DNA of 64,000 nucleotides from Octopus vulgaris (Eukaryota). Under the pieces are notes generated by a model that had not been told where the DNA came from, searched no databases, and saw only the letters and a program-made list of their open reading frames with translations. Positions 35,991-55,725 of the stretch are shown piece after piece. Location of the stretch: contig OX597830.1 of assembly GCA_951406725.2 (NCBI GenBank), positions 1,488,001-1,552,000 on the forward strand. The letters are read 5' to 3'. Position numbers and translations under genes: made by a program. Each line of letters starts with the position of its first letter. The stretch's first letter is position 1.

Positions 35991-36229
35991 GTTTAGATAT
36001 ATATATGTATATATATTTAATAATAATCAGAAATATTAAATTTCTAAATATCTCATAGAGATATGTACGGTGGTGGGGGTGATAGAATGGTTGTATACTG
36101 TCAATTTAACGTGACAGTAGGGGATTACACCACCGCTGTTTAGCCCTAGGAAGCATCTACGCTTCCTGTCGGCTTCGACACATTTCCTGTGTCCTTATAT
36201 ATTTATGAAGGGAAGACAAATACTCCCAA

Positions 36230-36311
36230 CAGCTAGGCCTGCATCTAGAGACACGCATGTTTCAGGGTCTTTGCCCATCATCGGTCTAGAGTAGCAGAAG
36301 CCTGCTAGCTG
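36230..36311 (-). ncRNA. Minimal type I hammerhead ribozyme
   Basis: TCTAGA-CCGATGA-TGGGCAAAGACCCT-GAAAC-ATGCGT-GTC^TCTAGA. Stem I extends through CTGC/GCAG, GGC/GCC and CAGCTAG/CTAGCTG. Confidence 0.8.
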
Positions 36312-36658
36312 CAGATGAAATCTTTATTAAAATCATGCGATTTTACATAGAATTGGACATCACAAGACAAACAATTACAAAGAATATTATGAGAGTTCGA
36401 ATGATACTTAAAAATTATAAAAATTTAATTATAATGTAACTTGAACGAAAACTTGGCTTACTTTCGCCTTTATAACGAGAACTTTAGTGCGTGTTTTTTT
36501 TTTAACAAAAAAAAATCATTAGACATTTTACATATGTTAATCATTTTCATTTTACATATGTTAATATGTAAAATGAAAAGGAATGGGAAGTGCCGGTTTC
36601 GAATTTTGAACCCGGCAGCTTATAAGGCCCAGCAACTAATTTTTCCTTTCTTCGATGA

Positions 36659-39600
36659 TTAAGCTGGGTTACTAACAACCACCTTTCTCATCACATCCTT
36701 CCAACGTTTCATATACTCTTTCTTTGGCAGGCTCTTCAGATGATATCTGAAGTATTTTAACAAACCGGAGCCAGAGACAAAGGATCCTGTCACTAAACCT
36801 TCCATTCTGGTTCTCCACACACACTCTTTCAGAACTGTCACCGTACAGTAAAAACAAGCCTTACCTTCCTTTGGGAGTCCAGTTGGCGTTATCATCTTTA
36901 TCATAGATCCAGCCGACAGCTGTACTCGTCCCAGATACGACATGTGTTCAATGTAACTAATCAAGCTTGACAGCTCCCGACATTGTACAAAAGCGTGTTG
37001 AACGGTTTCATCGTCCAACCCACATCTTGGACATGTCGGTGGCACTGACATTCCGTGCCTGGATAACTCCTTGCGAACAGGTAATGCATTCCTATAGCAC
37101 TGCCAGGTCAGGGATTTTTGGTAATTGTCCAAATACCCCGGCCTGAAAGTCTTCTTAAACAGGTTGGAGAGTTGATTCTCATCGAACCCCAGAGCCCCTC
37201 CTAGGACGTCGTCATTTTTTGCCTCTACCAGCCCTCTATAGAACACCGAGGTGGTATTCCCGCTGCCGGCCTTGCCCACCTTGTGGATTAGCCAGAGTGC
37301 CTGTCGGCACTCCTTCTGCCATAAAGTCAGGTTAGTCTTTTAATGAAACCGGGTTTAAATCTCTCCATAGAGGCCGGTCGCGGGAAGAATTTCTCTGCCA
37401 GCGGACTCCACACCTTATCACCCTCCAGGTGACACCAGAGATGTTTCAGCCTCAACGCATGCCTGCGCATCATTAGCCGAGGCATCCCCAGCCCACCCTT
37501 TAGCGGTTCCTGGCAACACGCGGAGCGTCTTACAAGTGGCTTTCCTCCTTTCCACAAAAAGCGGAAAAGGAGTCGTTCCAACTTGTTTAACCACGAATCG
37601 GGGCAAGGCACGACGGTCAGGCGGTAGGTGACGACAGAGGCTATAAACATCTGTACCACCTCCGCCCTCCCTTTCAATGAAAGATGCCTTCCGGACCACT
37701 TCCGTACTATAGCTTCTACCTTGTTCGCTACCTCGCTCCAATTCTTCTCCGTCTGGGAGTCTGGACCAAACCAAACTCCGAGCAATTTAACAGGACCATC
37801 TGTCCAGTGTCCAACAACACTGGACAATATCGGCTTGTTCCTCCAGGTGCCGAGGCGCAAACCGGTGGACTTGTCCTTGTTAACTTCGTATCTTCGGAGA
37901 GCACCTTCTACACGAGTTAGCTGTGCTTCGTTGGACACAATGTGGGTGACGTCATCCGCATAGGCAGAAATAGACTTACCGCATCCGATTTCATTAGGGT
38001 TGCTTCCCAACTTCTCCAACTTCCGCAGCAATGGCTCAAGAGCCAAAACATACAGGAGCGGGGACAAGGGACACCCTTGACGAACTGAACGCTTGATCGA
38101 AAGCGGCTCCGTTAGGTAACCGTTTATCTGGATTTTGGACTTGATGCCGCTGTACATAGCTGAGATCCACCCGCAAAAGCCAGTGCCCAGCCCAGCCGCC
38201 CCGAGGACAGTCGCGACGTACCGATGGTCTACCCTATCGAACGCTTTACTTTGGTCTAAACGGACCAATGCCCCTCCTTTGCCGGCTAATTTCCCGACCT
38301 TGTCTATAGTGTAGCGGAGAAGGTGAAGATTATCCTGGATCGACCTGCCTGGGATTGCACATTTCTGTGGCATCCCGACAAGTTTCTCCACGACAGCCGT
38401 CAACCTTTTTGCTAACACCTTGGCCAAAATCTTAAACTCTACATTAAGTAGAGTTATGGGCCTATAATTACTAATCCTATCCCTCTTGTTCGGGTCTTTC
38501 TGGACCAGCGTCACAACTCCCCGGCTCACAGAACTGGAAATCCTCCCATTATGTTGCCAGTTCGCATAGACTCCCGCCAGTATATCTCCGAACAAGTCCG
38601 GCATACAACAATAGAACTCATTGGGCTGACCATCTAACCCCGGCGACTTTTCCCCGGCGCAACCGGCCATAACCTCTCTTACCTCCGTGGGAGAGATCGA
38701 TCCTTCACAGCATTCCGCCTCACGTGTCGAGAGCCGCGGCCCACCGGCTAGGAAGTCCTTTAAGGCCTCCCCTCGCTCGAGCGGACCGCCATCCCCAAAC
38801 AACCAGCATTTGTCCATAGATCTTGCGATCCTGCTCGTCAGTGAAAGACCTTAATACAGTACTTTTTGCCCTCCTGACTCTCCTCACGACGGGCCCATCC
38901 GGCAACGTTAATACCTTCTCATTTTCCTGTACGTAACTTAGCTCTGACTCTACACCCCTCATGCTTGGCGTTGAGGTGACGGTACAAGACCGTTCTCGCT
39001 GCTAACACTCCAGATGTACAGCCAGATTCCATTGCCTCGTCTAAGATCTTAACGAATTCGCCCTATCTAAACTTAGCTGCTTGCTAAATCTAATGGACTC
39101 CAAACGGATGGCTCTTTTGAGGGCGAGCCACCATCTATTATTAATGATGGTGCCACATAATGCCCTCTGGACTAATTCCTTAATCCGGCTGCGGAAAGTT
39201 TCACCAGTCAAAATAGACTTGTTCATTTTCCAGTACCCGGGACCCTGTCTATGGCATTTATCTACCTGTACCTCACACGTCACAAGTTTGTGATCCGTGT
39301 AAGGCACAACAGAAAATTGTGGACAGCTAACACTATTCTTATCTCGTTCCTTAACAAATACTCTATCTATGTACGATCTGCGTGAGCCGTCGTTATTACT
39401 CAACGTCCACTGTAGAAAGTTCGGCTTATCCAGTCGAAAACGGTCTACTAGATTAAAGCTCTCTAGTAGAGCCTTGAGGCAAGGATTCCCTTTCCTATCG
39501 TTCGAGCCTACACTATCAACCCGCGCAGCGAGAATAGTGTTGAAATCCCCTACCAAGACTACCGTTTTAGACGTCACTAGAAAGTGATCCAGGTCCCGAT

Positions 39601-39949
39601 AAAAACCGGTTTGCCCACACCCATTAGGAGCGTAGACAGCTACCAACCTGAAAGACTGCTTACTCACGTGAGTCACAACCAGCCTACCTTCTGAGTCCAG
39701 AAAGACAGTACTTACCTGTAAGTCCAAGTTATTCCTGATAAAGACTGCCACGCCTGCACCTCACCCTCGGCTAGGAGAAATAAATTTCTTGTAGCCATTG
39801 AGAAGTGGCGAGAACGATTATGGTCCTTTCATCTTGGACTCGGTGACAATAGCCACATCGATTCTATGTGAAATTAGGTCGTCCAGCAAACAAGCCTGTT
39901 TCCATTTCGACCCCATTCCACCCACATTTATACAGCCTAACTTAATCAT
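36659..39949 (-). pseudogene. ORF2: AP-like endonuclease, reverse transcriptase and C-terminal Cys/His domain (frameshifted)
   Basis: APE: MIKLGCINVGG...DVAIVTE, VYAPN, VGDFN, SYIDRVF, TDHK. RT: KSPGLDG, NYRPITLLN, LDQSKAFDRVDH, RQGCPLSP, YADD. C-terminus: CPRCGLDDETVQHAFVQC. Confidence 0.93.
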
Positions 39950-39971
39950 CGAAGAAAGAAAAATAATTTAC

Positions 39972-41457
39972 TTACGGTTGCGAGAGGGAGCATGACAGGT
40001 TATGTCCGCCTGCCTTCCCCACACTCTCCGTTGTTGCTGGGTATTTCACCGGCGTTGCCACCGGGCTCTGGGTTGGTGTGGCTGCCGGGCTGATATGCAC
40101 TCTACCAGCTATCACCTTCTGGGTGAGATCCTTAATGAAACCGTCCTTTACATGTTGGAAGAGTCTCTCCTTCCATTCCTCCTCGCCGACTCTTGCGTAT
40201 CTCCATTCCGGGTCCTTCTCTGTCGTTTTAAAGCATTTGATTTCAGTTCTTGTTTTCACGAACCTCACAACTCTCTCATTTCTCGTATTATAAGCTATAC
40301 ACTTATCATTTGATTTAAACCCTTTTAAAGTTGGGGTGGGGTTTATTGAATTGCTGTCCTACAAACGTAGTACCAGCGGGATGGGATTGGAAAATTTTTT
40401 TATATTGATTTTGTTTTTTGTTTGGGGTGGAGAGTCAGGGTATTAGATTTTTTCTTTTTTGTTTGTCACAGTCGTATATTCCATTTCTTGTTGCTCATTT
40501 TTTTTGCTAGATTATTTTCCTCTTCCTTTTCTTTTTCGTTTTGTTTTTCATTCTTTTTGTCCTCTTTTTGAAATTCAGTTTGTTTTTTCTTTTCCGTGTT
40601 TTCTTTTGTTGTTGCTGTGTTGTCTGCTTTGTTGTTCTCTGTGTTTTTCACAGCGTTTTGAGGCAGGGCGTTGACCATTTTTTTTTTCGTACATACGGAG
40701 CGAACATGGCCTTTTTGCCCGCTCTTGAAACATCTGGGCCTGCGTCCCTCTACCGATACACGTATGGTATGCCCCTCCCCCACGAAGACCCTATCTGGCA
40801 AGCTTTCCTGCGTAGAATTTTCTACTTGAATAATCATCTCAAGCTGTTGGCCTTTCCAGTTTGTTGCCTCTTTCTTCCTCATGCTCAATATTGTTAATTT
40901 TTCCTCCACATCAAATATGACCGCTGTTGCCGCCCACATCACTTCGTATCCCTTTGGTATGTCCTCAATTGTAACTTTCGCCGTCCTACGCCCCAAATAC
41001 AAGGGAAGTAATAGGATATGTTCGCTTTTCAATGTTTGTGTTGACATTTCCTTCGCTACATCAGCCGACTCGAAATGAGCTTCTTTTGTAGCGCTTCTCG
41101 CACCTCGGCTGACGTAGCGAACCTTACTCCATATTGGCGCCATACACCTTTCGACTATATCATTTTTCACGTCGGTTATTCATTTTTCTTTTATATAATA
41201 TACTTTGTAAGTAACCGTCTTTTCTCGAATTGCCTCCATAGTTTCAGGGGGCGGTATTAATCGCGTTTCTTCACCGTTTTTTTAAAATTAACTTTCTGAA
41301 CTGGAAGAACTTTTCCATAGCCACTTCCAGCTCTACCACGTTGCCGCCTACGGCGTTCTGAGAAACTTGGTTTTGCCTGTGTAACCTTTTGTTTGTTATC
41401 GGTTGTGCCTTCTCCCATCTCGAGAAAATCTTTTTTTGAATTTAAGCCAAGTTCCAT
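39972..41457 (-). pseudogene. ORF1 of the Tx1-like LINE (Gag-like, zinc knuckle; frameshifted)
   Basis: LLLPLYLGRRTAKVTI and VSVEGRRPRCFKSGQKGHVRSVC (second Cys mutated), followed by a K/E/N-rich region. Confidence 0.85.
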
Positions 41458-42134
41458 TATAGAAAACAAGAAACTTGTCACAAATGACAAGGGAATTTTT
41501 CAAAAATAACCTATACAGGTTAACAGTTCACACAAAAAACAAAGAAATTTTCTACCCCGAAGGGCGAAAATTACTGAGTCAAAAAACAACAGTTCAAAAA
41601 TTTTTCACGTGTAACACAAAACAAAAAGGCAAACGGAATCGAACTCACACAACGGCTTGCAGCAACAGAAAAATGTTTGACGTATTCCGAGGAAAAATTC
41701 AAAAGGCCTGCTAGCTGCAGATATCTGTCTCGACTTCGTGAATATATATATCTAATCTTCAGTGAAGTTTATTCACTGATCACCAAAATCAGAAATATTA
41801 AATTTCTAAATATCTCATAGAGATATGTACTGTGATGGGGCGATAGAATGGTTGGGGGTATTTGTCTCCCCTTCGTAAATATATAAGGACACAGAAAATG
41901 TGTCGAAGCCGACAGGAAGCGTCGATGCTTCCTAGGGCTAAACAGCGGTGGTGTAACCCGTTACTGTCACGTTAAATTGACAGTATACAACCAGTCTATT
42001 ATCCCACCACCGTACATATCTTTATGAGATATTTAAAAATTTAATATTTCTGATTTTGGTAATCAGTGAATAAACTTCACTGAAAATTAGATACATATAT
42101 TTACGAAGTCGAGACAGATATCTGCACCTAGCAG

Positions 42135-43807
42135 TTTTTTTGGTGTCGGTTATTTTGTGTTACGGTTATTGTGTATCGCGGTTGTGAGTTCGAATTCGTT
42201 GCTGGAGGACGTGGTGAATTTTATTTGGAGATTTTGAAAATGCAAGACCAGACGTATGCGAGAGCAGCAGGCAGAGGCCTGGTTGCGAGTGAACTAGAAA
42301 TGGAAGAAGTGGTAGTCGAGAAGAAGACTTTAGAAAAATATTTCGACAGTTTGAAGAGGGAGGGTGACTGCGTGAGAGTCACACCGTCCGAAGAAGAAGA
42401 AAACAACGCGGAGAAACGTATGATAACATACAGGACATGGTGTGTGGCGTCAAGAAAAATAGAAGTAGCAGAGACGGAAGAAATAGAGAAATGTCTGCAA
42501 GGAATTGAGGGTGAACCTACCTTTTTCAACAGAGGAAGAAAATATGCCACAGTGGTGGTACACTTTAAAAATGAAAATGAAGCAAGAAAGAATGCGACAA
42601 AAATTCTGAAATCTGAAAGTTGGACATTATTACCTAGTTACTGCGGAAAGAGGGCAGTCAGAATAAGAATTAGTAGGATTTCGCCCGAACTTAACATGGA
42701 GAGGATACTAGCGGCAGTAGTTTTCAACTGCAAGGAAAGTGTGGAGGTGTTGAAGGTGGAGAGTCAACAGAAGTTAAATGGTGGGGATATGCGGTGCAGG
42801 TTCTGGCACATATAACCGTGCCAGACCTGTACAACATCCTGGAGGCGTTGGTCTTCCTTGATGAGACACGGCTTAGAGTCGTGGTAGAGGGAAGACCCCC
42901 AGTCTGTTATAATTGCAAATTAAGAGGCCACATGAAGGATGTGTGCCCGCTGGAGAAAACGATAGCACCGGAGGCTGTAACGAAGGAGTGGAAAGATACG
43001 TGTGTGGAGGAGGGAGAAGTGCAGAAGGAAACGAAAGCAGTGGAGGCGCAAACGGAGGAGCAGCTAATTGAGGATGTGGAAGAAGAACGTGCAAGTGCAG
43101 AGGATGAAAGAACAGAAGATAGGAAGAGAACAAGGGTGGAATCACCACCGAAAGTTCTAAAAAATAAAAAAATAAAAAGCAAGATAACAGAAGAAAAAGA
43201 AGAGAGAACGTGCAAAGAAAAGGACGAACAGACAATGACAGAGGTAAATCTAGAATGGAGAAAAAAAGTGAGAGAACAGTTGGATGTTTGTAAAAAGGGA
43301 AAAAGACCTGTAGGAAAATACCTGAAAGTATACGTGTTGTACGTCAAAGACACAGAAATGGAAAAAAGACTTGCAGGTAGGAAAGGATTGATTAGGGTTA
43401 AATTACACCCAGAACTGCATGATGACGATGTGAAAGGGGTTGTTGTAGATAAAGGAAAATTTGCTAAATTGAAAGTATGTTTGATGAGGTTTATTTAGCG
43501 CATTATGTACGTTATGACAATTTGCCAAATGTGATAGACCAGATGGAATTAACAAAGTACATGACGGACGAACGTCCAACAGAACTGGAATATATGTAAT
43601 TGTAAAATTGTAACATTGTAAATTGTAAAATGTAAAATTGTATTTTAAACGGAACTGCGAGTTTGGGGGGCTCGTAAGCCGTTCCATCTCACTCATTACA
43701 CATAATTCATCTTCCTTTCATATTTTATTTTTTACTTTATGTACCCCACGTCCCGTCTTGTAATGTCCCCTCTGCATTCCGGCCATCGTGCCCATAATAA
43801 AGAGATA
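42135..43807 (+). mobile_element. ORF1-only non-autonomous retroelement, copy A
   Basis: Bounded by ATCTGCACCTAGCAG at 42120-42134 and 43808-43822. Ends ATAATAAAAGAGATA. No ORF2. Confidence 0.88.
42240..43599 (+). pseudogene. ORF1 / Gag-like zinc-knuckle protein (frameshift near 42770, premature stop at 43498)
   Basis: MQDQTYARAA..., YCGKRAVRIRISRISPE, VVVEGRPPVCYNCKLRGHMKDVCP, RKRTRVESPPK, LIRVKL. Homology to copy B continues to TDERP. Confidence 0.85.
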
Positions 43808-43822
43808 ATCTGCACCTAGCAG

Positions 43823-45444
43823 TTTTTTTGGTGTCGGTTATTTTGTGTTACGGTTATTGTGTATCGCGGTTGTGAGTTCGAATTCGTTGGTGGAAGCTGT
43901 TACGGCGTGGTGAATTGTTGGAGGTTTTTTTTTTTCGAGTATGCAAGCCCAAACTTATGCGGGAGCAGCAGGCAAGGGCCTGGCTTCGAGCGAACTGCAG
44001 TTGGAGAAAGTGGTCGTCGAAAAGGAGAGCCTGGAGGAATACTTCAACAGTTTCAAGAAGGAGGGTGACTGCCTGAGAGTCACACTACCAGAAGAAGAAG
44101 TGAAAGAAGCAGAGAGGCGTATAGTGACATATAGAACGTGGAACGTGGCTTCGAAGAAAATAGAAGTGGTAGAGGTGGAGGAAATTGAGAGGTGTTTGCA
44201 GGAGATTGAAGAAGAAGCTACCTTCTATAATAGAGGTAGAAAGTACACGACGGTGGTAGTTCATTTTGAGAACAAAACTGAAGCAAAGAGGAGCGCTACG
44301 AAACTATTGAAAAGTGAAAAATGGCTATTGTGGAAGACGGGCAGTGAGAATAAGAATCAGCAAAATTTCACCAGAGTTGAAAATGGAGCGAATTATAGCA
44401 GCAACAATATTTAACTGCAAGGAGAATGTGGAGATATTAGAGATAGAAAAGTCGAAGGAAGTAAAGTGGTGGGGTTATGCAGTGCAGGCTTTGGTACACA
44501 TAACCATGTCAGACATTTATAACATCCCAGAAGAGTTGGTGTTCCCCGACGAGACACGACTCAGAGTTGTGGTAGAGGGGAGACCCCCAGTGTGCTACAC
44601 ATGTAAGATTAGAGGCCACATGATGGATGTGTGTCCGAAAAAAAAAGTACAAGAGGAGATGATAACATTGGAGGCTCTGACAGAAGAATTGCAAATGGCG
44701 GATGTAGAAGAAGAAATTTTGAATACAGATAATGTGGAAAGTGGTGACGAGTTGGTGAAGGAGGAAGAAAAGGAAAGAACAGAAGGAAAAGAAGATAGAA
44801 AGAGAACGCGGGTGGAATCACCACCTAAAGTACAAATAAAGAAAAAAGGGAAAAAGAAAACTACCGACGAGATAGAGGATCGAACGTACGAAGAGAAGGA
44901 TGCAGAAGCGAAAGCGAGTGAACCGGCAAATTTAAAGGCAGGGGAAGAATGGGACAGAAGAGTGGAAGAGCAGTTAAAAGTATGTAAGGAAGGAGGAAGA
45001 CCCAAGGGAAAAAATTTCAAAGTGGTAATATTGTACATGAAGGACAAAGAAATCGAAAAGAAGCTAGAAAAGTTTAATCAGAGTAAAGTTAAACCCAAAA
45101 ATATTTGATGATCAAGTGAAGGCGGCGATTGTGGAAAAAGAGACAATGAGGAAATTGAAAAGTGTGTTTTCGGCTGTATGCGAAATGCAATATATCCGTT
45201 ACGACAGTTTGCCAGCTATTGTAGCCCAGGTGAGGTTACTCGATCACATTACAGATGAACGCCCAGTATAACAAAATTGTATTTTAAATGAAACTGCGAG
45301 CTTGGGGAACTCGTAAGACATTCCATTAACCCATTATAAATAATTCATTATCATACCATACTTTTCGATTTTTTTAATTATATTTACCACATGTCCTGTT
45401 TTGTAATGTCCCCTCTTAGTTCGGGCTATATAATAAAGATTTCC
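43823..45444 (+). mobile_element. ORF1-only non-autonomous retroelement, copy B
   Basis: Bounded by TCTGCACCTAGCAG (43809-43822) and TCTGCAGCTAGCAG (45445-45458). Ends TAATAAAGATTTCC, like the Tx1 LINE. Confidence 0.88.
43941..45271 (+). pseudogene. ORF1 / Gag-like zinc-knuckle protein (frameshifts near 44325 and 45070)
   Basis: MQAQTYAGAA..., VVVEGRPPVCYTCKIRGHMMDVCP, RKRTRVESPPK. The last frame reads LIRVKLNPKIFDD...ITDERPV*. Confidence 0.85.
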
Positions 45445-45448
45445 TCTG

Positions 45449-45530
45449 CAGCTAGCAGGCTTCTGCTACTCTAGACCGATGATGGGCAAAGACCCTGAAA
45501 CATGCGTGTCTCTAGATGCAGGCCTAGCTG
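45449..45530 (+). ncRNA. Minimal type I hammerhead ribozyme
   Basis: TCTAGA(45470-75)-CCGATGA-TGGGCAAAGACCCT-GAAAC-ATGCGT-GTC(45510)^TCTAGA. Quasi-palindromic stem III. Core identical to the copy at 36.25 kb. Confidence 0.8.
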
Positions 45531-45989
45531 TTGGGAGTATTTGTCTTCCCTTCATAAGGACACAGGAAATGTGTCGAAGCCGACAGGAAGCGTCGATGCT
45601 TCCTAGGGCTAAACAGCGGTGGTGTAATCCCCTACTGTCACGTTAAATTGACAGTATACAACCATTCTATTTAATAATATATTATTATTAATATTAGGAA
45701 ATCAATATTAAAACACATCATAAAGATGTACATGTATGAAAAATGATTGTTGTATTAAAAATAAATAAATAAATATAAATATATATAAAACTATATGTAA
45801 ATATGTATAAGTATAAATATATAATGTCTATGACAGTTTAAATGTTTTGAATTAATTATTTAAATCATCTTACGATCGCTTCGCAGGAGGATTTTGTTAA
45901 AGAAGTTTTGTTAAACGAACTTAAGACATAAAAACTTCTTGAGAATAGACGTTCCTTCCTTCATGCGAAGAAAATATCTCTTTTGCATC

Positions 45990-46302
45990 TTACTTTTTTG
46001 GTCACTTAAATATACTGCATTTTGTGGCATTATTTCAAGCCAGTCGGCTTTTTTGCGCAAACTGCACGAGCATTTTTCTCGTGTACGCGTAGAATCGATC
46101 GCAACGGTAGGAGTAGTTGCGCGTACAAATGCACGTTCCCACGGCTTTATTGATCGCATTCTCACCTGGAATCGATTTTTGTAATCTTTTCAAGACTTAT
46201 AAACGCCCTGATACCGTCGGTATCTACATAGCAAATTTGAACGCAATCGATGGAGGATGCCCGAGATCCTAGAAGACACACACAGAGACAGAGCGAACGG
46301 AT

Positions 46303-46305
<3 letters not shown>
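45990..46305. mobile_element. Probable Helentron/HINE-like non-autonomous element end
   Basis: Ends ...AAATTTGAACGCAATCG...CACACACAGAGACAGA...TTTTATATA, the same architecture as the terminus at 55.07-55.16 kb. Confidence 0.4.
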
Positions 46306-47778
<1,473 letters not shown>

Positions 47779-48565
47779 AGACGATGTAACCAAGGCTATA
47801 GATGAAATGAAAACAGACTCAGCTACTGGCCCCGATGGATTCCCGGCAATCCTCCTAAAAGCATGTAAGAGAGTCCTAGCAAGACCACTGCAGTTCCTCT
47901 TTCAGAGATTCCTTGCAGCTGGCAAACTTCCAGGAAAACTGAAGGAAGGTAAAATATGCCCCATTCATAAAGGAGGTAGCAGAGCGGAAGCCAAGAACTA
48001 TAGACCTATCTCTCTGACCTCACACATCAGCAAGGTCATGGAACGAATAGTCAGAAGGAAGCTGATCACCTTCCTTGAAGAGAATGACTTGCTGCCCGAC
48101 ACCCAACATGGTTTCCGACAAGGGAGAAGCTGCTTAACTCAGCTCCTACAACACTATGACTGGGTGCTGAAACGGCTGCTCAACCACTCAAATGTGGAAG
48201 TGATATATCTCGACTTTGCAAAGGCCTTTGATAAAGTCGATCATGGAATGATATGTCACAAACTGCGTGATCTCAACATAGTTGGAAAACTGGGAGAATG
48301 GCTTCATGACTTTCTGAAGGATAGAAATCAGGTGGTAGTAGCCAATGGGGCCACCTCCATTAACACACAAATAGTGAGCGGTGTTCCGCAGGGCACTGTC
48401 CTGGGACCACTACTGTTCATAATGGCCCTCTCAGACATGCCCTCAGCCACGCAGAGAGCCACGATCACAAGTTATGCAGACGATACAAAAGTTTCACAGG
48501 CAATACAGAACCCTGAGGACACTAAACACCTGCAATGTGAGCTGGACGAAATATACAAGTGGCTA
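47779..48565 (+). mobile_element. CR1-like LINE reverse transcriptase fragment (open frame 47807-48601)
   Basis: GPDG, NYRPISLTS, QHGFRQGRSCLTQLL, YLDFAKAFDKVDH, SGVPQGTVLGPLLF, YADD. Truncated at both ends. Confidence 0.88.
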
Positions 48566-50432: not shown

Positions 50433-50741
50433 CTATCCATATGGTATATTTATATTCGACATTTTAAATTTAGCCTTGTGCCTACATAAGTTCATTAATT
50501 CACTTCTTTGATTCAAAGAATTATTGTCTTTGAATAATATGTGCATTTTTTCTAATAAGCAAAGCCTGCACTTGAAATTATATTTGTAAGCTCCATGCCT
50601 GTATGGTGCCGCCCTGTCCAGAATGCTCCATGTCACGTTGAAAGGTGGGGCTTCCTTTTCTTTTAGTTCCCAGACATATTTTGCTAGGCTGGTTTTCTTT
50701 CTATTCTCTGGGTATTTAAAAGAATTCTTATGAGAATAGAA
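50433..50741 (-). pseudogene. Penelope-like GIY-YIG endonuclease C-terminal fragment (mirror copy at 50732-51006 +)
   Basis: FYSHKNSF...TSLAKYVWELK...WSIL...CRLCLLEK...LNQRSELMNLCRH. Confidence 0.75.
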
Positions 50742-52011
50742 AGAAAACCAGCCTAGCAAAATATGTCTGGGAACTAAAAGAAAAGGAAGCCCCACCTTTC
50801 AACGTGACATGGAGCATTCTGGACAGGGCGGCACCATACAGGCATGGAGCTTACAAATATAATTTCAAGTGCAGGCTTTGCTTATTAGAAAAATGCACAT
50901 ATTATTCAAAGACAATAATTCTTTGAATCAAAGAAGTGAATTAATGAACTTATGTAGGCACAAGGCTAAATTTAAAATGTCGAATATAAATATACCATAT
51001 GGATAGAGTATATATTTTGTATTTTGATTTTTTGATTTTGATTTTGACTCTTGAGCGCTACAACGGACCTATAGCAAAGTCTTATTGTTTCTACATATAT
51101 ATTAGGAAAAACCTACAAACTTTGTTTTCATGTTATTGTATTGCATAAGATTACCTTGATTATTTATATTACCTTGATTATTTATAAATGACCCAAAATA
51201 GGATGTTATATTTTATTTTATAGGTCTTTCGTATATATTTTTATTAATGCACCCATTTTTTAAAAGCAATGTTTTTTTATAAAAAAAGCAATGTTGTCAA
51301 ATTTAGAATGTTTATATAAGTTTGTGTATAGCAAAGCATATGTATTTGTAAGCATGCGTATCTGTGTATGTGTAAGTGAAAGTATGCTTGTGCTTAAGCA
51401 CACATATACACGACGGTATGTATATGTATCAATTCAAACTTGTGTATGTATACTGGCCTCTATAGATGCCAAATAACATCGCTACAAGTTTTTTCCCCAC
51501 CCCTCCTCCGTTCCTTTTTCTCTCTTTCCCTTTCTTTCGTTCCCCCTCCTTGCTCAGTATATGAGAATTGCTACATAGATGAATTTTAGCTTGCGTGCGA
51601 GACGGTTTGCGTGAATATATGTACACATGCTTTTATGTGTATAATTTAGATTCATATTCATACGTCTGTATATGTATGTATGGCGTTTACGCGCATCCTT
51701 TTGTGTATGTTGATATATATATGTGGATTTTAATATAAATATGTATTGCAGTATTTATAACAGGTTTAATTTCTATGCATTAATTTGTACTGTCTTCATT
51801 AACGGCAACAGGTTTTTTCCTCGGTATTTTCCTCGGATTTTATAATTTTTATAAGTTTTTATATATATATACATATATTTTTGACCTTTTTGTTTATCGC
51901 TCGAAGATTGACCGTTTTTTCTAAAGGGCCAATCAAACAAGTCCATTTCTTTTTAAAGGTGTAGCGTTTGTAAGAGTATAGATTGAATTAATATATATGT
52001 TCCATTCTAGC

Positions 52012-52059
52012 AAAAACTGTCTGATGAACGGCAACGGGAAACTCAGAGTAACAGATTTT
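52012..52059 (+). ncRNA. Minimal type I hammerhead ribozyme (right palindrome arm)
   Basis: AAAACTGT-CTGATGA-ACGGCAACGG-GAAAC-TCAGA-GTA^ACAGATTTT. Confidence 0.75.
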
Positions 52060-55463: not shown

Positions 55464-55725
55464 CGCATATGGTGTAGTGGTTAAGAGCGCGGGCTACTAA
55501 CCCCAAGATTCCGGGTTCGATTCAAGCAGGGACGTGAATAATAATAATAATAATTATAATAATAATAATAATAATAATATCGAAAAATACCTTAGGAATG
55601 AGAACCCAGGTTCCAAATTCCCCCAAGACACCTGATGAAGGCTGGCGGGTATATCACCGAAACGTCGTGTCAACTACAAACAAGATGAAGACAAGTATCT
55701 GTCAAAGGTAAATAATGTAAATAAT
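55464..55725 (+). mobile_element. tRNA-headed SINE with an (AAT)n linker and hammerhead-containing tail
   Basis: A-box TGGTGTAGTGG (55470-80), B-box GGTTCGATTC (55514-23), hammerhead at 55627-55671. Ends GTAAATAATGTAAATAAT before (TA)n. Confidence 0.75.
55627..55671 (+). ncRNA. Minimal type I hammerhead ribozyme
   Basis: GACAC-CTGATGA-AGGCTG...CACC-GAAAC-GTC^GTGTC. Loopless palindromic stem III (ACGT). Confidence 0.7.

Follow-up and report, generated by a model that had tools for sequence, protein, structure and literature searches.

Probable Pol II start-site insertion by an octopus LINE and its ORF1-only partners, with a doubtful role for the hammerhead of the host repeat

A LINE of Octopus vulgaris and its ORF1-only, non-autonomous partners are found at the first bases of U2 snRNA genes, with a related LINE lineage at U1, and at a matching position in dispersed repeats that carry a hammerhead motif. 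The reading favored here, with a probability of roughly two in three, is that these elements insert at the first bases of the host units, are transcribed from the promoter captured in this way, and obtain their 3' ends by polyadenylation. The insertion sites, the target site duplications (TSDs), the absence of poly(A) and the TSD relics of former hosts are direct observations. Since insertion at starts is likely to borrow the host promoter, the ribozyme downstream is probably a bystander and not a cutter. The initial annotation had instead proposed that the host hammerhead cuts read-through transcripts and leaves them with a defined 3' tail. A template with target sequence at its 3' end remains plausible, given the absence of poly(A), the association of element lineages with host families, and an off-U1 site that shares its first six bases with U1, while the hammerhead as the maker of this tail is mostly unsupported.

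The window locus and the element family

The window, a stretch of 64,000 nt of contig OX597830.1, contains an inverted pair of one dispersed host repeat in which three elements, a LINE and the tandem copies A and B, occupy the identical host position (Table 1). Both the LINE and copy B end in AATAAAGATTTC without an A-tail, at 36317 (-) and 45443 (+), respectively, as had been described initially. Copies A and B are 68% alike, with 15-bp TSDs between and around them, and the 3' TSD of the tandem differs from the 5' and middle TSDs at two of 15 positions. The 3' end of copy A is 98% identical to a lineage otherwise nearly confined to host subfamily H1b. The first ~65 bases of this copy (42135-42200, +) are near-identical to those of copy B, while its body and 3' end are of the H1b-type lineage, and on this sequence pattern copy A is likely a recombinant or template-switch product.

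Table 1. Features of the element-bearing locus in the window
Feature	Position	Strand	Remark
Host repeat 3' of LINE	36025..36316	-	Penelope/retrozyme-like; monomer ~358 nt
Host type I hammerhead motif	36239..36297	-	U4C variant; predicted cut after 36250; sequence same as the folded + copy
LINE 3' TSD	36301..36316	-	
LINE, decayed, full-length, L1/Tx1-like	36317..41706	-	ORF1, then APE, RT and zf-RVT in broken frames
AATAAA, LINE 3' end	36323..36328	-	6 nt ahead of TSD
zf-RVT (LINE)	36662-37339	-	Pfam
RVT_1 (LINE)	37330-38850	-	Pfam
Exo_endo_phos (LINE)	39044-39760	-	Pfam
LINE 5' TSD, 16 bp	41707..41722	-	Putative start: host transcription likely begins with these bases
Host repeat 5' of LINE	41722..41854	-	TATA-like run ~41751-41742, by eye
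Host repeat 5' of copy A (inverted arm)	41851..42119	+	Without hammerhead; TATA-like run ~42092-42100
5' TSD of A+B tandem	42120..42134	+	
Copy A	42135..43807	+	ORF1-only non-autonomous element
Middle TSD, A/B boundary	43808..43822	+	
Copy B	43823..45443	+	ORF1-only non-autonomous element; terminal AATAAAGATTTC
AATAAA, copy B	45432..45437	+	6 nt ahead of TSD
3' TSD of tandem	45444..45458	+	
Host repeat 3' of copy B	45444..45671	+	
Host type I hammerhead	45463..45521	+	Predicted cut after 45510
Hammerhead helix I	45470-75/45511-16	+	Outer part 45463-66/45518-21
Hammerhead core	45476-82 and 45497-45500	+	
Hammerhead helix II	45484-86/45493-95	+	
Hammerhead helix III	45500-02/45507-09	+	

The LINE has the domains of the L1 group, with a CCHC knuckle in ORF1 (seen in a relative) and an APE-RT-zinc finger order in ORF2, and its insertions generate TSDs and prefer particular targets. 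It is described as L1/Tx1-like, membership of the Tx1 clade being putative; the closest named protein is an unannotated ORF of Argonauta hians (55%), and no named Tx1 reference was among the matches. A segment following the ORF2 stop (36665-36635, -) is complementary over ~26 bp to the region of the ORF2 start codon (39965-39935, -), with an energy of -41.8 kcal/mol. All eight copies examined keep this pairing, at -27 to -46 kcal/mol and in some cases through matched changes, and it may control ORF2 translation; a splice-donor-like GTAAGT precedes the complementary segment. Three LINEs (L187, L189, L192) with TSDs of 16-18 bp are inserted in the antisense strand of the post-ORF2 3' segment of related LINEs, a segment that resembles the ORF2 start. 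Elsewhere in the window lie a long AT-rich low-complexity tandem array (46200-47800) and a near-perfect 180-nt hairpin (50630-50809), at both of which Rfam miRNA matches fell below the gathering score.

The wider family was sampled as 120 fetched loci, found through two similarity searches and through two end patterns that matched 74 and 39 times. No poly(A) run was seen at any of the 137 element 3' ends in these loci. The TSDs are mostly 13-19 bp long, and both flanks of an insertion show the variant of the locus itself. With labels corrected by hand (L128 was moved to off-host, L200 and one L131 end to tandem-in-host, and both L208 and L209 to LINE type), hammerhead hosts hold about 67 of the 86 B-type ends and 23 of the 54 LINE ends. 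These hosts form about eight families that differ in sequence at the insertion site, and across them the distance from site to hammerhead core stays near 24-34 nt. The other 31 of 54 LINE ends are off-host, where most of the 5'-truncated LINEs are found, mostly without a visible promoter, and many off-host sites start with ATC or AT. Truncated LINEs of varied lengths with their own TSDs also lie inside hosts (L168, L162, L205, L178, L165, L206) and show independent insertion. Short chimeras, in which a LINE 5' UTR is joined to a B-type body or 3' end (L097, L098/L099 (L288/L281), L124), appear from their sequence to be a third non-autonomous type, often in tandem. A histone 3' stem-loop match (L190, 1581-1626, -) lies ~1 kb from one off-host LINE insertion.

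Insertions at snRNA genes, 5' ends and host fidelity

Six element-U2 junctions were found genome-wide, among 56 exact U2 starts, together with one element-U1 junction; reversed-pattern controls of the U2 and U1 junction searches returned none. The window LINE family and its ORF1-only partner account for the U2 junctions, and the U1 junction belongs to a more distant LINE lineage, as judged by its 3' UTR. Full-length LINEs with 83-88% identity to the window LINE have U2 nt 1-14 as flanks and follow U2 upstream sequence. They lie in two arrays with unlike upstream sequences, C3 and C23 (L225/L226, L245, L228/L229), and their 3' UTRs nest with the window LINE in a starred (99/96) clade of 13 rows. 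Seven upstream bases are duplicated as well in these U2-hosted LINEs, which places the nick between -7 and +1. One B copy (L117) is inserted 3 nt ahead of a full U2 gene, behind U2-type upstream sequence. The U1 evidence consists of one 5'-incomplete insertion (L243) and one relic (L234). The first TSD base in both U1 and U2 is the known transcription start. The junctions at both genes are as tail-less as those in hammerhead hosts, and the ribozyme is absent, so it is not required for this type of junction. Copies hosted by U1 and U2 appear to have acted as donors.

Further U2-like contexts were seen at three loci. One (L231, near 326, +) combines a U2-type upstream region, a 14-nt U2-like TSD and a LINE-like start, and adjoins a rearranged LINE; at another (L160), the element is inserted ahead of a degenerate U2-like sequence with no Rfam match at gathering score; at a third (L301), the 5' junction shows a short stretch resembling U2.

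All 30 LINE 5' ends fetched (of 40 matches, and including the window's own and two near-duplicates) adjoin a host TSD, 27 of them in a hammerhead host or tandem and three in U2. Among 30 fetched B 5' ends, 26 do so, three are off-host and one is probably a spurious match. Several copies also carry the TSD of an old host, as a relic that starts at, or no more than 2 nt from, its first base. In the U2 copies, a 14-nt TSD of an H2 hammerhead host, present from its first base, lies between the U2 TSD and the LINE 5' end, and LINEs that sit in H2 (L270, L274) have a 5' UTR with a matching start. Two others (L094/L280 and L292) have another host's TSD plus 2 nt at the 5' end. The U1 relic, L234, starts with U1 nt 1-17 and is sister to the U1-hosted insertion (100/100); it sits at a non-U1 site, the first 6 nt of which equal the first 6 nt of U1. 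Read most simply, these sequences point to an element RNA that begins with the first base of the TSD and extends into the target at the 3' end.

The site in hammerhead hosts is likely a transcription start as well. A TATA-like run was noted by eye, with no background tally, ~28-35 nt upstream in most hosts; three off-host insertions (L122/L300, L169, L301), likewise read by eye, have TATAAAA ~28-30 nt upstream. Against this reading of the TATA-like runs, the genome is rich in AT, no clean TATA is present in H4 hosts, and a second TATA-like run lies ~105 nt downstream in the host. Two of the off-host insertions (L122, L169) share almost the same point of a further repeat, downstream of a canonical TATA.

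Host labels are distributed on the element trees with fewer changes than in shuffled controls. For B elements, 26 changes were counted against 52.3 when shuffled, none of 200 shuffles being as low; this tree holds 80 of 88 rows (eight short ones dropped), includes the LINE-type L208 and L209 and the mislabelled L128, and has unsettled bootstrap values. The corresponding counts for the LINE are 19 and 29.8, on a tree of 51 of 61 rows from which short and duplicate rows were dropped. Element lineages track host family, with switches, and such fidelity could stem from simultaneous activity of elements and hosts. At several of the H1b loci L093, L096, L105 and L157, one and the same position reads C in the 5' TSD and T in the 3' TSD, a sequence difference which suggests that the H1b 5' TSD was partly copied from donor RNA.

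Traces of a donor-derived tail were sought at 43 sites outside hammerhead hosts, where microhomology to donor TSDs was not significant (p=0.089). Runs shared by off-host site and donor host TSD averaged 1.74 nt against 1.24 nt in the control, the longest being 9 nt, and 18 of the 43 sites lay above the control and 24 below; U1 and U2 were absent from the donor set, and L117 is among the 43 sites. Host sequence carried out as far as the GUC (3' transduction) was found in none of 43 copies outside hammerhead hosts, a weak count because the tail need not be copied.

The following mechanism would accommodate these patterns. Insertion would take place at Pol II transcription starts, the site in hammerhead hosts being the putative host start, and the element would be transcribed from the promoter captured upstream, so that its RNA begins with the 5' TSD. 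The AATAAA would direct cleavage ~10-30 nt downstream, giving an RNA that ends in target sequence plus poly(A); a signal 6 nt before the TSD would alone place the poly(A) cut within the TSD. A short stretch of target sequence would then pair with the nicked strand, and reverse transcription would begin at the last base of the element, with the consequence that no A-tail is copied and lineages tend back to their own host. The hammerhead would lie 67 nt downstream because it stands near the start of the host's own transcript, and transcripts that escape polyadenylation could be cut in trans by a host hammerhead. A bolder version, judged less likely than not, has the LINE tethered to the Pol II initiation machinery and outsourcing both RNA ends to the host, to the promoter at the 5' end and to a host processor at the 3' end, with the duplicated target guiding return and stacked relics recording host switches. 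The 3' processor would then be the hammerhead in retrozymes and snRNA 3' processing in U1 and U2.

The host hammerhead and alternative explanations

The host repeat has a monomer of ~358 nt and 2574 first-look candidates in a search of the 2.8-Gb genome. Full tandem spacing of 358 occurs at two loci (L095, L134), and partial tandem and inverted copies elsewhere, so that the repeat has the unit length (170-400 nt), the type I hammerhead and the tandem or partial tandem arrangement of retrozymes and Penelope pLTRs. An ORF fragment that we take to be Penelope-like lies ~270 nt from a host copy at one of 28 loci checked (L022). Canonical CUGAUGA...GAAA hammerhead-like cores are present at three other places in the window, 55633-55662 (+) and an inverted pair at 52022-52041 (+) and 49420-49401 (-), and probably belong to Penelope-type repeats.

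Covariation indicates that the fold is real in the hosts. Across 22 host copies picked by hand from the host families (374 cells), 92.2% of cells are paired, as compared with 71.0% after shuffling and 22-46% in slid controls, and changes on both sides occur in 15 of 17 pairs, kinship tending to inflate such counts. Three helices surround the core and helix I is open, as in type I. In the window motif, the core reads CCGAUGA and has C at U4, departing from the consensus C3 U4 G5 A6 N7 G8 A9 and hence from the full consensus core (C3-A9 / G12 A13 A14 / A15.1-U16.1 / H17). The same CCGAUGA is present in 27 of the closest 30 host copies, a set biased to similar copies, and CUGAUGA occurs in the sister families H5 and H6. 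Other core variants are U3 with a compensating A8 (H2, H3), U3 with G8 (H4) and a degenerate core (H7). The closing position of helix II (10.1-11.1) is U·U in the window and A-U or G-C in other host families. U4C lowers in vitro hammerhead activity yet may suffice in vivo, and among mismatches at 10.1-11.1 the one tolerated best is U·U, such variants being able to retain some activity (PMC3088659).

Helix III of the window motif has only 3 bp. Its pairing probability in the monomer is 0.0, and the active fold is predicted at -6.7 kcal/mol against -10.4 for the best fold; in a dimer, self-pairing of helix III is predicted to form a 10-bp duplex (-12.5 kcal/mol). The window ribozyme is therefore predicted to be weak as a monomer, and with one CCGAUGA-type hammerhead per strand at the locus and no partner in cis, it would need a partner in trans. 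Rfam hammerhead models gave no match in the window or in 14 host loci, and single-sequence folds were no better than shuffles (z -1.35 to 0.25). The predicted GUC cut does lie 67 nt past the element end on both strands, in agreement with the 66-67 nt given initially. The accompanying claim that the TSD rebuilds a complete ribozyme does not stand: core and helix I lie wholly downstream of the TSD, the bases of which enter only a distal 5-bp stem. Assembled contigs, some presumed RNA-derived, span the predicted cut, and some run from element into flank; aligned to the elements, they revealed neither starts nor ends of transcripts, and they carry no verdict, since DNA, uncut RNA or circular RNA would all give such contigs. 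A loose end (X2) with an A-rich consensus after AATAAAGAT, seen in two contigs with an agreement of 0.83, was rejected as an RNA end.

It is considered quite unlikely that, in hammerhead hosts, read-through RNA is cut 67 nt past the element by the host ribozyme, probably in a trans-dimer formed with the abundant RNA of the host, and that this cut makes the end of the priming template. The same tail-less junction and apparent donor activity occur at U2, and in the related lineage at U1, without any ribozyme. The compensatory changes in the fold, the abundance of the host and the location of most B-type ends and part of the LINE ends in hammerhead hosts count in favor of cutting. The stable helix III duplex and the tolerance of the U4C and U10.1-U11.1 variants would permit some activity; however, the monomer pairing and the single motif per strand weigh the other way, and Penelope-type hammerheads cleave poorly even as dimers (PMC4209133). 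Moreover, the upstream AATAAA would act first and would suffice by itself, and host sequence as far as the GUC was found in none of the 43 copies outside hammerhead hosts. Promoter capture with polyadenylation has difficulties of its own, in that the starts and ends of element transcripts are deduced from sequence and that U1/U2 heads, already known on Tx1 elements, could be yielded by template switching.

A different account, judged unlikely, dispenses with promoter preference and supposes a weak endonuclease preference, often for ATC, together with pairing of a target-derived RNA end, only those copies that landed at start sites being transcribed and multiplied. Although many off-host sites, like U1 and U2, begin with AT, more than half of the LINE ends are off-host and the hosts are homologous to one another, this account needs exact starts to have been hit by chance several times independently within 2.8 Gb of genome, by the U2 LINE clade, by the B copy L117, at L231, at U1 and at the three TATAAAA sites outside hosts. 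The host target sequences also differ widely, and the microhomology test did not reach significance. A very improbable alternative is that a few old insertions were amplified as host cargo by the Penelope machinery. The clustering of element lineages by host subfamily and the Penelope-style partial tandem and inverted arrangements of host copies would fit, but truncated LINEs of differing length with their own TSDs inside hosts largely refute it, and TSDs that match each locus's variant on both sides, tandem re-insertions, and the U1 and U2 insertions also speak against it.

Comparison with known systems

To our knowledge, start-site targeting by retrotransposons has so far concerned Pol III genes, and the Tx1 elements known to date are described as specific for the sequence of a single target. 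The Keno site lies inside U2. The ribozyme of R2 is element-encoded and frees the 5' end of the element. A literature search, with Repbase, subscription journals and supplements outside its scope, found no account of this LINE system, and earlier annotation is possible.

Within the Tx1 clade, target-specific LINEs include Tx1-Mar, which occurs with SINEU in Mariner-N4_AMi (PMC4494074). The octopus system resembles that pair in combining an APE-RT LINE with a non-autonomous partner and in preferring a multicopy repeat or snRNA gene, and it resembles Tx1 systems in tandem insertions that sandwich a TSD, U1/U2-derived 5' heads and suggested transcription from the flank (PMC4494074). Keno and Utopia share a site (PMC4640811). 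Unlike Tx1L in Tx1D, Keno and Tx1-Mar, the octopus family is found in targets that have no relation to one another (hammerhead repeats, U2 and, for a related lineage, U1), each time at their first bases.

R1 of 28S rDNA generates a 14-bp TSD, has 3' ends without heterogeneity and, in some lineages, carries upstream target bases at the 5' end; downstream target bases in its RNA are thought to anneal to the nicked strand (PMC2718515), and a requirement of R1Bm for such bases is cited in PMC7265360. The octopus element is like R1 in the proposed priming by a target-derived RNA end. R1 has one fixed target in a Pol I gene, whereas in the octopus element the constant would be the position of the transcript start while the host changes. 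R2 is co-transcribed with its target (PMC2718515). A processed co-transcript of the R2 type would call for a ribozyme carried by the element at every active copy; here the ribozyme is not part of the element but host-owned, lies 3', and is absent at U1 and U2 sites, so the system is not of the R2 type.

Ty3 inserts within 1-4 nt of the Pol III start, and TRE5-A, an element of the L1 type, has an ORF1 that binds TFIIIB (PMC5911963). As in Ty3, Tj1, NLTR-A and TRE5-A (PMC5911963), octopus insertion is position-specific relative to the transcription start. Those elements insert upstream of Pol III genes, whereas the octopus element duplicates the first 14-16 bases of probable Pol II units, in sense, and sense insertion at the first bases appears to capture the promoter.

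The host repeat resembles non-LTR retrozymes and Penelope pLTRs in its type I hammerhead, short palindromic helix III, ~358-nt monomer and partial tandem and inverted copies (PMC7229834, PMC4209133, PMC8557442; bioRxiv 10.64898/2026.07.22.740005). It differs from them in that most copies are dispersed and span 1-1.5 units, with cores of the U4C or U3/A8 variant.

If the favored reading is true, the choice by one LINE of the first bases of several Pol II units unrelated to each other would represent a new targeting rule, the insertions would mark the start sites of retrozyme-like repeats, and a simple origin would be at hand for the U1/U2 heads on Tx1 elements and SINEU. Processing by a host ribozyme would also be new if true, and the genome evidence makes it optional at best. 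The system is a variant of target-specific LINEs, in which a link between non-LTR integration and Pol II initiation would become directly testable.
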